3,221 nucleotides of DNA, from NCBI RefSeq assembly GCF_003334255.1, contig NZ_QOWU01000126.1; one strand, written 5' to 3'. The DNA comes from Escherichia coli. GTDB lineage: Bacteria > Pseudomonadota > Gammaproteobacteria > Enterobacterales > Enterobacteriaceae. This document shows positions 1 to 3,221 of this stretch, piece after piece (position 1 is the stretch's first letter; the number at the start of each line of letters is the position of its first letter). The notes beneath the pieces are model-generated. The model did no database searches, was not told where the DNA came from, and worked only from the letters and a program-made list of their open reading frames with translations. The position numbers were made by a program, and so were the translations under genes.

Positions 1-77
1 AGTTATCGTGAGAGTAATTCATCGGCACGTTAAATCATATCAGGCGTAATACCACAACCCTTAAGTTAGCGCTTATG
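1..77. mobile_element. Terminal 77 bp of an IS186-like insertion sequence (IS4 family), element truncated by the window start; terminus at position 77
   Basis: Reverse complement of 1..77 reads CATAAGCGCTAACTTAAGGGTTGTGGTATTACGCC..., which matches my recollection of the IS186 terminal inverted repeat and adjacent sequence. The flank immediately outside (78..90, GGATCACTCCCCG) is GC-rich, the kind of target IS186 prefers. Identification is from memory, not a search. Confidence 0.7.
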
Positions 78-99
78 GGATCACTCCCCGCCGTTGCTC

Positions 100-252
100 T
101 TACTCGGATTCGTAAGCCGTGAAAACAGCAACCTCCGTCTGGCCAGTTCGGATGTGAACCTCACAGAGGTCTTTTCTCGTTACCAGCGCCGCCACTACGG
201 CGGTGATACAGATGACGATCAGGGCGACAATCATCGCCTTATGCTGCTTCAT
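100..252 (-). CDS. hokC: HokC (Gef) type I toxin, 50 aa small membrane peptide of the Hok/Gef family
   Basis: The last 50 codons of the 100..342 minus-strand ORF translate to MKQHKAMIVALIVICITAVVAALVTRKDLCEVHIRTGQTEVAVFTAYESE, which I recognise as HokC/Gef: one hydrophobic transmembrane segment and a short polar tail. ATG is at 252..250 and stop TAA at 102..100 on the - strand. An AGGAGA Shine-Dalgarno lies 8-13 nt upstream (revcomp of about 258..268). Confidence 0.9.
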   Translation of the reverse strand: MKQHKAMIVALIVICITAVVAALVTRKDLCEVHIRTGQTEVAVFTAYESE

Positions 253-309
253 TGCTCTCTTCTCCTTGACCTTACGGTCAGTAAGAGGCACTCTACATGT
301 GTTCAGCAT
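100..309 (-). CDS. mokC: MokC, 69 aa overlapping reading frame (modulator of killing) whose translation is coupled to hokC
   Basis: In-frame ATG at 309..307 extends the hokC frame N-terminally (MLNTCRVPLTDRKVKEKRA + HokC), with GAGG about 9 nt upstream. The ORF track's 80 aa version starts at a further upstream GTG (342), which I do not favour. The nested mok/hok arrangement is the established architecture of hok/sok loci. Confidence 0.8.
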   Translation of the reverse strand: MLNTCRVPLTDRKVKEKRAMKQHKAMIVALIVICITAVVAALVTRKDLCEVHIRTGQTEVAVFTAYESE

Positions 310-355
310 ATAGGAGGCCTCGGGTTGATGGTAAAATATCACTCGGGGCTTTTCT
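301..355 (+). ncRNA. sokC: SokC antisense RNA (antitoxin of the hok/sok type I system); ends approximate
   Basis: Lies antisense to the mokC translation initiation region (mokC ATG at 307..309, SD at about 319..322). A hairpin with stem 317..324 paired to 342..349 (8 bp including two G-U pairs in RNA) is followed by TTTTCT at 350..355, an intrinsic-terminator-like 3' end. The 5' end near 301 is from recall of the locus, not derived from the sequence. A TTGACC -35-like hexamer is at 266..271 but I could not find a convincing -10. Confidence 0.55.
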
Positions 356-408
356 CTATCTGCCGTTCAGCTAATGCCTGAGACAGACAGCCTCAAGCAC
401 CCGCCGCT

Positions 409-414
409 ATTATA
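409..414 (-). promoter_or_regulatory. Candidate -10 hexamer (TATAAT on - strand) for the mokC/hokC mRNA
   Basis: Revcomp of 409..414 is a perfect TATAAT, about 95 nt upstream of the mokC ATG and about 150 nt upstream of the hokC ATG, consistent with the long structured leader typical of hok mRNAs. No good -35 match at 16-18 bp spacing. Positional inference only. Confidence 0.3.
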
Positions 415-534
415 TCGCTCTCTTTAACCCATTTTGTTTTATCGATTCTAATCCTGAAGACGCCTCGCATTTTTGTGGCGTAATTTTTTAATGATTTAAT
501 TATTTAACTTTAATTTATCTCTTCATCGCAATTA

Positions 535-563
535 TTGACGACAAGCTGGATTATTTTTGAAAT
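535..563 (+). promoter_or_regulatory. Candidate sigma70-type promoter (TTGACG -35 at 535..540, 17 bp spacer, TGAAAT -10 at 558..563) in the AT-rich nhaA upstream region
   Basis: Hexamer match and spacing read directly from the sequence. nhaA is known to have two promoters (P1 NhaR/Na+-dependent, P2 stationary-phase), but I cannot assign which this is, if either. Confidence 0.25.
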
Positions 564-760
564 ATTGGCCTAACAAGCATCGCCGACTGACAACAAATTA
601 ATTATTACTTTTCCTAATTAATCCCTCAGGAATCCTCACCTTAAGCTATGATTATCTAGGCTTAGGGTCACTCGTGAGCGCTTACAGCCGTCAAAAACGC
701 ATCTCACCGCTGATGGCGCAAATTCTTCAATAGCTCGTAAAAAACGAATTATTCCTACAC

Positions 761-766
761 TATAAT
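761..766 (+). promoter_or_regulatory. Candidate -10 hexamer (perfect TATAAT) about 72 bp upstream of the nhaA start
   Basis: TATAAT at 761..766; the sequence 17 bp upstream (TAAAAA at 738..743) is a poor -35. Could be one of the two known nhaA promoters; not resolved from sequence. Confidence 0.3.
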
Positions 767-771
767 CTGAT

Positions 772-799
772 TTTAACGATGATTCGTGCGGGGTAAAAT
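772..799 (+). promoter_or_regulatory. Second candidate nhaA-proximal promoter (TTTAAC -35-like at 772..777, 16 bp spacer, TAAAAT -10 at 794..799)
   Basis: Hexamers read from the sequence; the predicted start would be about 30 nt upstream of the GTG. Weak -35. Listed as an alternative to the 761..766 element. Confidence 0.25.
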
Positions 800-823
800 A
801 GTAAAAACGATCTATTCACCTGA

Positions 824-829
824 AAGAGA
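824..829 (+). promoter_or_regulatory. Ribosome-binding site of nhaA (AAGAGA)
   Basis: Purine-rich AAGAGA sits 8 nt upstream of the GTG at 838. Confidence 0.5.
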
Positions 830-837
830 AATAAAAA

Positions 838-2004
838 GTGAAACATCTGCATCGATTCTTTAGCAGTGATGCCTCGGGAGGCATTATTCTTATCATTGCC
901 GCTATCCTGGCGATGATTATGGCCAACAGCGGCGCAACCAGTGGATGGTATCACGACTTTCTGGAGACGCCGGTTCAGCTCCGGGTTGGTTCACTCGAAA
1001 TCAACAAAAACATGCTGTTATGGATAAATGACGCGCTGATGGCGGTATTTTTCCTGTTAGTCGGTCTGGAAGTTAAACGTGAACTGATGCAAGGATCGCT
1101 AGCCAGCTTACGCCAGGCCGCATTTCCAGTTATCGCCGCTATTGGTGGGATGATTGTGCCGGCATTACTCTATCTGGCTTTTAACTATGCCGATCCGATT
1201 ACCCGCGAAGGGTGGGCGATCCCGGCGGCTACTGACATTGCTTTTGCACTTGGTGTACTGGCGCTGTTGGGAAGTCGTGTTCCGTTAGCGCTGAAGATCT
1301 TTTTGATGGCTCTGGCTATTATCGACGATCTTGGGGCCATCATTATCATCGCATTGTTCTACACTAATGACTTATCGATGGCCTCTCTTGGCGTCGCGGC
1401 TGTAGCAATTGCGGTACTCGCGGTATTGAATCTGTGTGGTGCACGCCGCACGGGCGTCTATATTCTTGTTGGCGTGGTGTTGTGGACTGCGGTGTTGAAA
1501 TCGGGGGTTCACGCAACTCTGGCGGGGGTAATTGTCGGCTTCTTTATTCCTTTGAAAGAGAAGCATGGGCGTTCTCCAGCGAAGCGACTGGAGCATGTGT
1601 TGCACCCGTGGGTGGCGTATCTGATTTTGCCGCTGTTTGCATTTGCTAATGCTGGCGTTTCACTGCAAGGCGTCACGCTGGATGGCTTGACCTCCATTCT
1701 GCCATTGGGGATCATCGCTGGCTTGCTGATTGGCAAACCGCTGGGGATTAGTCTGTTCTGCTGGTTGGCGCTGCGTTTGAAACTGGCGCATCTGCCTGAG
1801 GGAACGACTTATCAGCAAATTATGGTGGTGGGGATCCTGTGCGGTATCGGTTTTACTATGTCTATCTTTATTGCCAGCCTGGCCTTTGGTAGCGTAGATC
1901 CAGAACTGATTAACTGGGCGAAACTCGGTATCCTGGTCGGTTCTATCTCTTCGGCGGTAATTGGATACAGCTGGTTACGCGTTCGTTTGCGTCCATCAGT
2001 TTGA
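838..2004 (+). CDS. nhaA: Na+/H+ antiporter NhaA (388 aa, 12-TM secondary transporter), GTG start
   Basis: ORF 838..2004 translates to [41 protein letters not shown]..., which I recognise as E. coli NhaA essentially residue for residue. The protein is highly hydrophobic, and the conserved Asp163-Asp164 pair (IIDDLG, codons GAC GAT at 1324..1329) of the ion-binding site is intact. Stop TGA at 2002..2004. Confidence 0.97.
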
Positions 2005-2018
2005 CAGGACGGTTTACC

Positions 2019-2046
2019 GGGGAGCCATAAACGGCTCCCTTTTCAT
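2019..2046 (+). terminator. Intrinsic-terminator-like hairpin between nhaA and nhaR (probably partial, allowing read-through)
   Basis: GGGAGCC at 2020..2026 pairs perfectly with GGCTCCC at 2033..2039 (7 bp GC-rich stem, 6 nt loop ATAAAC), followed by TTTTCATTGTT from 2040. It starts 15 nt after the nhaA stop and ends before the nhaR SD. The short, interrupted T-tract suggests incomplete termination. Confidence 0.45.
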
Positions 2047-2052
2047 TGTTAT

Positions 2053-2060
2053 CAGGGAGA
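2053..2060 (+). promoter_or_regulatory. Ribosome-binding site of nhaR (AGGGAGA)
   Basis: Strong SD-like AGGGAGAGA ends 3-5 nt before the ATG at 2064. This supports ATG 2064 as the start rather than the TTG at 2046 used by the ORF track. Confidence 0.55.
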
Positions 2061-2063
2061 GAA

Positions 2064-2969
2064 ATGAGCATGTCTCATATCAATTACAACCACTTGTATT
2101 ACTTCTGGCATGTCTATAAAGAAGGTTCCGTGGTTGGCGCAGCGGAGGCGCTTTATTTAACTCCACAAACCATTACCGGACAGATTCGAGCGCTGGAAGA
2201 GCGCCTGCAAGGCAAATTATTTAAACGCAAGGGACGTGGTCTCGAACCCAGCGAGCTGGGAGAACTGGTCTATCGCTATGCCGATAAAATGTTCACCTTA
2301 AGCCAGGAAATGCTGGATATTGTGAACTATCGCAAAGAATCCAATTTATTGTTTGACGTTGGCGTGGCTGATGCACTTTCCAAACGCCTGGTCAGTAGCG
2401 TACTTAACGCCGCAGTGGTAGAAGGCGAGCCCATTCATCTTCGCTGCTTCGAATCCACCCACGAAATGCTGCTGGAGCAATTAAGTCAGCATAAACTGGA
2501 TATGATCATTTCTGACTGTCCGATAGACTCTACGCAGCAGGAAGGCCTGTTCTCCGTGAGAATTGGCGAATGTGGCGTGAGTTTCTGGTGTACAAATCCA
2601 CCACCAGAAAAACCGTTCCCGGCTTGTCTGGAAGAACGGCGACTTTTGATTCCTGGGCGACGTTCAATGTTAGGGCGCAAATTGCTTAACTGGTTTAACT
2701 CCCAGGGATTAAACGTAGAAATCCTCGGCGAGTTTGATGATGCCGCTTTGATGAAAGCTTTTGGTGCGATGCACAATGCAATCTTCGTTGCCCCAACGCT
2801 TTATGCATATGACTTTTATGCCGATAAAACTGTCGTAGAAATTGGTCGCGTCGAGAATGTGATGGAAGAGTACCATGCTATTTTTGCTGAGCGGATGATT
2901 CAGCACCCGGCGGTACAGCGAATCTGCAATACGGATTATTCTGCGCTTTTTAGTCCAGCGGTGCGTTAA
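2064..2969 (+). CDS. nhaR: LysR-type transcriptional activator NhaR (301 aa), Na+-responsive regulator of nhaA
   Basis: From ATG 2064 the frame translates to [53 protein letters not shown]..., which I recognise as E. coli NhaR. It has an N-terminal helix-turn-helix typical of LysR-type regulators and a C-terminal co-inducer domain. Stop TAA at 2967..2969. The ORF track's TTG start at 2046 adds 6 residues and overlaps the upstream hairpin, so I reject it. Confidence 0.96.
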
Positions 2970-2976
2970 TCGGCAG

Positions 2977-3001
2977 CTCCCCCAAAGTTAAGGTGGGGGA
3001 G
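2977..3001. other. GC-rich hairpin immediately downstream of the nhaR stop (no U-tract)
   Basis: CTCCCCCA at 2977..2984 pairs with TGGGGGAG at 2994..3001 (8 bp stem, 9 nt loop). No T-run follows on either strand, so it is not a canonical intrinsic terminator; it could be an RNA stability element or a rho-dependent termination region. Confidence 0.3.
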
Positions 3002-3144
3002 ATAGATTAGTTGTACATTACCACGATTTTGACTCGGCTCATTATTTGCCCGCTTGAGACATTGTTTCCATATGTACGCGGGCGAATAAATAGAGGAATC
3101 TGATTACTTCCTTCATGGGGATGCTGAAAAGAGTAGTAATTGCT

Positions 3145-3221
3145 GGTAATGACTCCAACTTATTGATAGTGTTTTATGTTCAGATAATGCCCGATGACTT
3201 TGTCATGCAGCTCCACCGATT
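3145..3221. mobile_element. IS1 terminus (terminal inverted repeat GGTAATGACTCCAACTTATTGAT and adjacent sequence), element truncated by the window end
   Basis: 3145..3167 matches my recollection of the IS1 terminal inverted repeat. The following sequence encodes the InsB C-terminus on the - strand (see next feature). The putative 9 bp target flank just outside the element is 3136..3144 (GTAATTGCT). Confidence 0.85.
3160..3221 (-). CDS. insB: IS1 transposase InsB, C-terminal fragment (partial, continues beyond the window)
   Basis: Minus-strand translation of 3219..3163 gives ...SVELHDKVIGHYLNIKHYQ followed by stop TAA (revcomp of 3160..3162), which matches the InsB C-terminus as I recall it. 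The ORF track did not list it because it is truncated at the window edge. Confidence 0.85.
   Translation of the reverse strand, partial: SVELHDKVIGHYLNIKHYQ

Follow-up and report, generated by a model that had tools for sequence, protein, structure and literature searches.

Does a stretch of Escherichia coli DNA lying between the ends of two insertion sequences, on contig NZ_QOWU01000126.1 of NCBI RefSeq assembly GCF_003334255.1, conceal a system that has not previously been described? The stretch, which is 3,221 nucleotides (nt) long and is called the window throughout, takes in one end of IS186, the hokC/mokC/sokC type I toxin-antitoxin cassette, the Na+/H+ antiporter gene nhaA, its regulatory gene nhaR, and one end of an IS1 copy with part of insB. 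An initial annotation, made from the letters without database searches, had concluded that these known elements account for every substantial open reading frame and most of the non-coding structure, with no evidence of anything undescribed. Our comparison of the window with complete genomes, family models and related loci bears this conclusion out: the window is almost certainly a part of the E. coli chromosome that has been characterised before, located between dnaJ and rpsT, and holds no undescribed system.

The evidence that carries this answer is identity. Positions 55-3221, amounting to 98% of the window, are 100% identical to and colinear with positions 16,706-19,872 of E. coli K-12 MG1655 (NC_000913.3). 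When all 3,221 bases were compared with 5,426 complete E. coli genomes by megablast, at least 25 genomes contained full-length matches at 100% identity, and 4,145 of the 5,426 had a single place covering at least 80% of the query. Every long open reading frame (ORF) is covered by annotated features of two reference records. The elements named in the initial annotation all lie at their expected places, with genome annotation, Rfam, Pfam and NCBIfam in agreement.

Near-identity to MG1655 had been anticipated over the full length of the window. This held for 55-3221 and failed for 1-54, which, once reverse complemented, correspond to the opposite end of IS186A. These 54 nt are the only positions out of register and are themselves IS186 sequence, so that no segment of more than 100 base pairs (bp) is left unmatched by the known locus. 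Coding-type conservation was found for none of the rejected ORFs, whether in alternative frames, between genes or antisense to hokC. The inventory of elements was correct in what it listed and incomplete in one respect, namely that it omitted a fimbrial-gene remnant at 3007-3144 on the minus strand. The reported absence of CRISPR repeats, tRNA-like sequences and repeat arrays was upheld: ARAGORN detected 0 tRNA or tmRNA genes in the window, TRF detected only a trivial 21-nt AT-rich tandem repeat, and the direct repeats in the window were only two-copy chance ones (14-27 nt, 76-93% identity), with no CRISPR-like array. A permissive Rfam scan of the whole window returned no family beyond sok at E ≤ 1. 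The features on which the remainder of the analysis relies are as follows (aa, amino acids; the basis of each assignment is given in parentheses).

1-77, minus strand: terminal 77 nt of IS186, transposase-proximal end (matches to MG1655 and RefSeq annotation).
55-77: terminal inverted repeat of IS186, 23 bp (junction comparison).
78-87, no strand: target-site duplication of IS186, 10 bp, GGATCACTCC (junction comparison).
100-252, minus strand: hokC, Hok/Gef-family membrane toxin of a type I toxin-antitoxin pair (MG1655 annotation, b0018/b4412, transferred over 100% identity).
100-309, minus strand: mokC, in which hokC is nested in the same frame (MG1655 annotation, b0018/b4412, transferred).
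250-402, minus strand: leader of the hokC mRNA, reaching from its 5' end as far as the hokC AUG and holding the SokC target (Rfam RF01794).
301-359, plus strand: sokC, antisense RNA gene, the antitoxin (MG1655 b4413, 16952-17010, transferred; inside the Rfam sok match).
403-734, no strand: AT-rich, strain-variable spacer, 32-45% G+C (composition and comparison).
735-837, plus strand: promoter-proximal control region upstream of nhaA (conserved, by blastn, in Citrobacter and Kluyvera).
838-2004, plus strand: nhaA, Na+/H+ antiporter, 388 aa, GTG start (TIGR00773 equivalog; annotation).
2019-2040, plus strand: G+C-rich hairpin and T run between nhaA and nhaR (terminator scan and fold).
2064-2969, plus strand: nhaR, LysR-type activator of nhaA, 301 aa in the MG1655 annotation (NF008284; annotation).
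2977-3001, no strand: hairpin CTCCCCC ... GGGGGAG between the convergent nhaR and fimbrial gene (folds on both strands).
3007-3144, minus strand: pseudogene remnant, the last 45 codons and stop codon of a 319-aa gene of a fimbrial operon (RefSeq pseudogene coding sequence; comparison with E. coli O157:H7).
3145-3221, minus strand: first 77 nt of IS1A (MG1655 IS1A, 19796-20563, transferred).
3160-3221, minus strand: last 62 nt of insB (MG1655 insB1, 19811-20314, transferred).

The departure from MG1655 resides in the IS186 copy next to hokC. Positions 1-92 match the reverse complement of the left end of MG1655 IS186A (locus L002, 1467-1376), and because 1-54 represent the opposite end of the element from the one found there in MG1655, the window is not the MG1655 reference sequence. 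The start codon of insL lies at 22-20 on the minus strand. In NZ_CP025842.1, which is identical to the window, RefSeq places the IS421/IS186 transposase coding sequence on the minus strand with its boundary at window position 22; in MG1655 the coding sequence is on the opposite strand. The two 1339-bp copies (L001, 1739-3077, and MG1655, L002, 1391-2729) show 0 mismatches once one is reverse complemented, and their junctions are identical. Membership of IS186 (IS4 family) follows from inverted repeats at both ends of the element, of which one end is inside the window, together with the 10-bp duplication in a GGGG...CCCC target; in O157 (L003) the site is unoccupied. The source strain is K-12-related at the hokC-nhaA-nhaR locus, yet its sequence differs from the MG1655 reference.

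The duplicated target, GGATCACTCC, falls within GGCGGGGATCACTCCCCGCC, a G+C-rich hairpin in the 3' untranslated region of hokC, the hairpin being taken from a fold of the uninterrupted mRNA. Probing with 160-nt junction sequences placed IS186 at hokC in the orientation of the window in approximately 941 genomes and in that of MG1655 in approximately 831, with an empty site in most others; the counts are approximate, and a few of the matches are similar junctions at hokD-/hokE-type loci. We suggest that IS186 has repeatedly targeted the G+C-rich 3' hairpin found at hok loci. Junctions about 91% identical to the one at hokC were also observed adjoining hokE/hokD-type genes, on both chromosomes and plasmids.

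Spontaneous insertion of IS186 at one position of the lon promoter, in either orientation, has been documented (PMC3045373). Since the element is known to enter a single hot spot in both directions, the two orientations need no selective explanation, and independent insertion at a hot spot would be sufficient to account for both of them. Inversion of IS186 in place, between its inverted repeats, may be an alternative route to the same outcome.

Could the inverted copy nevertheless be functionally meaningful, in the sense that the hokC promoter drives the transposase by read-through, with insL in the sense direction? The arrangement is compatible with this: hokC and insL share the minus strand, the ATG of insL (window 22) is 78 nt downstream of the hokC stop codon, a terminator scan found no terminator-like site on this strand, and the K-12 hokC (gef) transcript has been reported to enter the insertion sequence and to terminate some 200 bp beyond the stop codon (PMC3562002). 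Both orientations are also common, as counted above, but two orientations are what hot-spot insertion alone would be expected to yield, as at the lon promoter. Moreover, many insertion sequences block read-through translation of their own transposase. We consider a functional role of this kind unlikely. Slightly less likely again is a broader proposal, according to which the presence of IS186 in hok 3' hairpins, in both orientations and at hokE/hokD-type loci too, reflects recurrent, selected disarming of chromosomal hok toxins as opposed to a neutral hot spot, and the hokC promoter might additionally drive the transposase in the orientation of the window.

Neutral insertion into a hot spot, the reading that we prefer, has consequences for hokC all the same. 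When the uninterrupted O157:H7 allele was folded, the first 12 nt of the hokC mRNA paired with nt 352-364, which lie roughly 50-60 nt beyond the stop codon. The IS186 insertion corresponds to mRNA nt 316-325, 13-22 nt after the hokC stop codon, in the hairpin GGCGGGGAGUGAUCCCCGCC. In hok/sok loci a 3' fold-back (fbi) element characteristically pairs with the 5' end of the mRNA and holds the full-length transcript inert. Because this insertion point precedes the fold-back segment, the fbi element has been cut away from hokC and is not contiguous with it in the window. The K-12 gene gef/hokC carries a downstream IS186 that disrupts the same element, and with the element separated in this way the literature regards the locus as disrupted (PMC3562002). 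With IS186 in this position, the hokC mRNA no longer carries its 3' fold-back element, and the toxin-antitoxin cassette is disabled. The missing contiguous fbi element is a feature of the known, disrupted K-12-type allele and not the sign of a different family.

Family models identify the cassette independently of these junctions. The Rfam family sok (RF01794) matched 250-402 on the minus strand with 118.3 bits (E = 1.3e-27; gathering score 59) over the full length of the model (positions 1-157), and Pfam PF01848 (HOK_GEF) matched the hokC product with E = 5.5e-24 over the full model (1-42). The mok frame (100-309, minus strand) is open and is contained within an 80-aa ORF that begins with GTG. 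On the other strand, the 95-aa ORF at 94-381 was rejected as a codon-aligned antisense shadow of hokC/mokC. All four substitutions inside hokC change residues of this antisense ORF, and two of the four are silent in hokC.

Beyond the cassette lies the AT-rich spacer, the part of the window in which an overlooked gene might most readily be sought. A TATAAT motif on the minus strand (414-409), read from the sequence, is likely to be the hokC promoter. Outside the genus Escherichia, blastn found no match to 403-734. Conservation beyond Escherichia was confined to 735-837, which is kept in Citrobacter and Kluyvera (matches of 733/739-836 in L007, L008, L026 and L009); E. albertii shares 598-837, and 88-597 are confined to E. 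coli. The operon nhaAR is driven by two promoters, the NhaR-dependent, H-NS-affected P1 and the sigma-S-dependent P2 (PMC6307784), and this known regulation of nhaA accounts for the conserved upstream part. Region 735-837 is a likely site, and hence a candidate position, for P1.

In other E. coli lineages a point at about 520-600 in the spacer serves as an island site. The match to strain JJ1886 (L085) stops at window position 519, where it gives way to an island bearing an OmpK-like protein gene and a sulfatase gene. As a side observation, the spacers of both JJ1886 (L085, 2934-5433) and SBF22 (L004, 39-3687) carry genes for an OmpK-like outer-membrane protein and a sulfatase; that of SBF22 also encodes a protein with an IS1/IS1595-type zinc-binding N-terminal domain.

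It is very improbable that the 330 nt of AT-rich sequence at 403-734 encode an undescribed small RNA or small protein. The spacer is long for an E. coli intergenic region, and a 100-nt stretch at about 620-719 on the plus strand folds better than shuffled sequence (z about -2.7), the sliding fold z-scores being unremarkable over the rest of the spacer. Set against this are the lack of any Rfam match in the spacer in the permissive scan (E ≤ 1), the failure of 88-597 to be conserved outside E. coli, with no more than 598-837 shared by E. albertii, the island that splits the spacer in other lineages, and promoter-like and terminator-like matches that are no more frequent across the window than in shuffles. 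Three small ORFs of 23-25 aa (393-470 and 636-707 on the minus strand; 786-863 on the plus strand) were examined and rejected: in other Escherichia, two are broken by stop codons and one by an insertion or deletion, and they have no obvious ribosome-binding site. Furthermore, the better-folding stretch sits where an upstream nhaA transcript from P2, reportedly described by Dover and Padan in 2001, would be expected. In a somewhat wider interval, 580-719 on the plus strand, z ranges from about -2.4 to -2.7 against mononucleotide shuffles; this interval falls within the sequence upstream of nhaA that E. albertii shares, and may be part of the 5' untranslated region of a transcript from the distal nhaA promoter.

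Least probable of all is a concealed gene that overlaps nhaA or nhaR in another frame, or that runs antisense to hokC. For this comparison we used 80 nhaA loci from GTDB species representatives, with codon alignments of 71 sequences for nhaA and 48 for nhaR, tested 16 alternative-frame ORFs inside the two genes for open-frame conservation, and scanned the alignments for synonymous constraint. Candidates certainly exist, including ORFs of 96 aa (2486-2776, minus strand), 75-77 aa (1372-1605 and 1509-1736, minus strand) and the 95-aa ORF antisense to hokC, and some remain open widely among relatives: on the minus strand, 1185-1349 is uninterrupted in 52 of 70 loci, 1359-1451 in 62 of 70 and 2327-2434 in 37 of 47. 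However, most of the 16 gain stops in Citrobacter, Kluyvera or Enterobacter orthologues and were rejected as genes; 1372-1605 has stops even in an E. coli locus that is 98% identical (L005), and no more than 14 of 47 loci keep 2486-2776 open. The ORFs that remain open in over half of the loci are confined to one antisense frame. By frame arithmetic, a stop can form in this frame only where T or C stands before a sense codon for Tyr, His or Gln, residues that are scarce in NhaA, so that the openness of these ORFs results from the composition of the sense protein. Synonymous-codon entropy in the nhaA and nhaR alignments showed no dip beyond z = -2.4. The antisense ORF at hokC is open in 3 other E. 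coli alleles, but these are 97.6-99.3% identical and hence uninformative, and the hokC substitutions are all non-synonymous in it. All of the other ORFs in the window are chance or shadow ORFs.

No result contradicts this accounting of the window by known elements, and the limits of its support are these. With the NCBIfam Hok subfamily model, the hokC product gave E = 2e-12 and 46.8 bits, below the curated cut-off of 73; the Pfam match and the 100% identity to K-12 settle the assignment. The substitution pattern that favours hokC over its antisense ORF comprises only n = 4 substitutions, and is weak but consistent. Lastly, the lack of conservation of 403-734 leaves strictly some room for a lineage-specific small transcript.

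The accounting by known elements is clearest for the two genes at the centre of the window. The nhaA product scored 660 bits with TIGR00773 (cut-off 254) and 677 bits with NF007112 (cut-off 408), and the nhaR product scored 603 bits with the NF008284 equivalog (cut-off 219), all of them full-length matches to NCBIfam models. RefSeq PGAP starts nhaR at 2070. The order nhaA-nhaR is kept in 48 of the 80 loci, spanning Enterobacterales, Aeromonas, Shewanella and Vibrionaceae.

The hairpin between the two genes (2019-2040) folds at -20.6 kcal/mol (z = -2.9) and looks like a terminator or attenuator. It is followed at about 2050-2057 by the conserved ribosome-binding region of nhaR, TCAGGGAG, whose CAGGGAG motif is widely kept across genera; the corresponding spot in other genera is occupied by a hairpin that differs in sequence and is likewise followed by CAGGGAG. 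CsrA is reported to regulate nhaR (PMC6307784), and the hairpin together with CAGGGAG fits both an ordinary attenuator or terminator and this reported control. The second hairpin, at 2977-3001, has z-scores of -3.9 and -3.7, one per strand, and is probably a two-way terminator. A side observation concerns Aeromonas and Shewanella (L038, L040, L042-L050), in which the nhaA-nhaR spacer measures 340-480 nt, as against 6-220 nt in enterobacteria, and contains an apparent small ORF with a signal-peptide-like start right at the nhaA stop codon; this ORF is not in the window.

On the far side of nhaR is the element that the initial annotation had missed. RefSeq labels 3007-3144 (minus strand) as 'fimbrial family protein, missing N-terminus', and the remnant is identical at 45 of 45 positions to residues 275-319 encoded by the intact O157:H7 gene (L003, 9108-10067). 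The O157:H7 operon consists of fimbrial subunit, chaperone and usher genes with the 319-aa gene last, and espX1 lies past its far end, towards rpsT. The intact 319-aa protein of O157 has no Pfam or NCBIfam match, and the label 'fimbrial' for its gene derives from operon context and RefSeq naming only. In SBF22, nhaR is followed not by the fimbrial operon but by genes for a GH31 glycosidase and a major facilitator superfamily (MFS) transporter.

The remnant is cut exactly at the end of IS1A, and both the IS1 end and the 3' end of insB are identical to the annotated MG1655 IS1A. The 9-bp target duplication is absent, the flanks being GTAATTGCT and TACCTCAAT, which argues for an adjacent deletion rather than a simple IS1 insertion. 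These flanks map 6,505 bp apart in O157 (L003, 9108-15750 region), and this distance, together with the missing duplication, indicates that IS1A replaced the rest of the fimbrial operon and espX1. The arrival of IS1A would accordingly be the event that deleted the rest of the operon and left the 45-codon remnant behind.

Together, the inverted IS186 and the fimbrial remnant are ordinary strain variation and leave the verdict on the window unchanged. Both are useful as strain markers, the second as a fimbrial gene truncated by IS1, and not as pointers to new biology. The result is of value only as a clean negative, which allows the window to be set aside with confidence; recognition of a known locus from raw sequence worked.

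The window is best placed by comparison with three known systems. With MG1655 16,706-19,872 it shares the site at which IS186 is inserted, the duplicated 10 bp and the junction with IS1A, and it differs in that the 1339-bp IS186 is inverted, such that window positions 1-54 are the transposase-proximal and not the distal end. Like hok/sok of plasmid R1 and the hok loci on E. coli chromosomes, it has a Hok/Gef ORF, an overlapping mok frame, an antisense Sok gene and a structured mRNA leader; the difference is that the fold-back element, which pairs with the mRNA 5' end in the intact allele, is parted from the gene by IS186. The third system is the chaperone-usher operon next to nhaR in O157:H7, which we take to be 'loc1', or O-island 1, of EDL933. 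The last 45 codons of its terminal 319-aa gene are 100% identical to 3007-3144, whereas its usher, chaperone and subunit genes and espX1 (6,505 bp), present in O157:H7, have IS1A in their place in the window.

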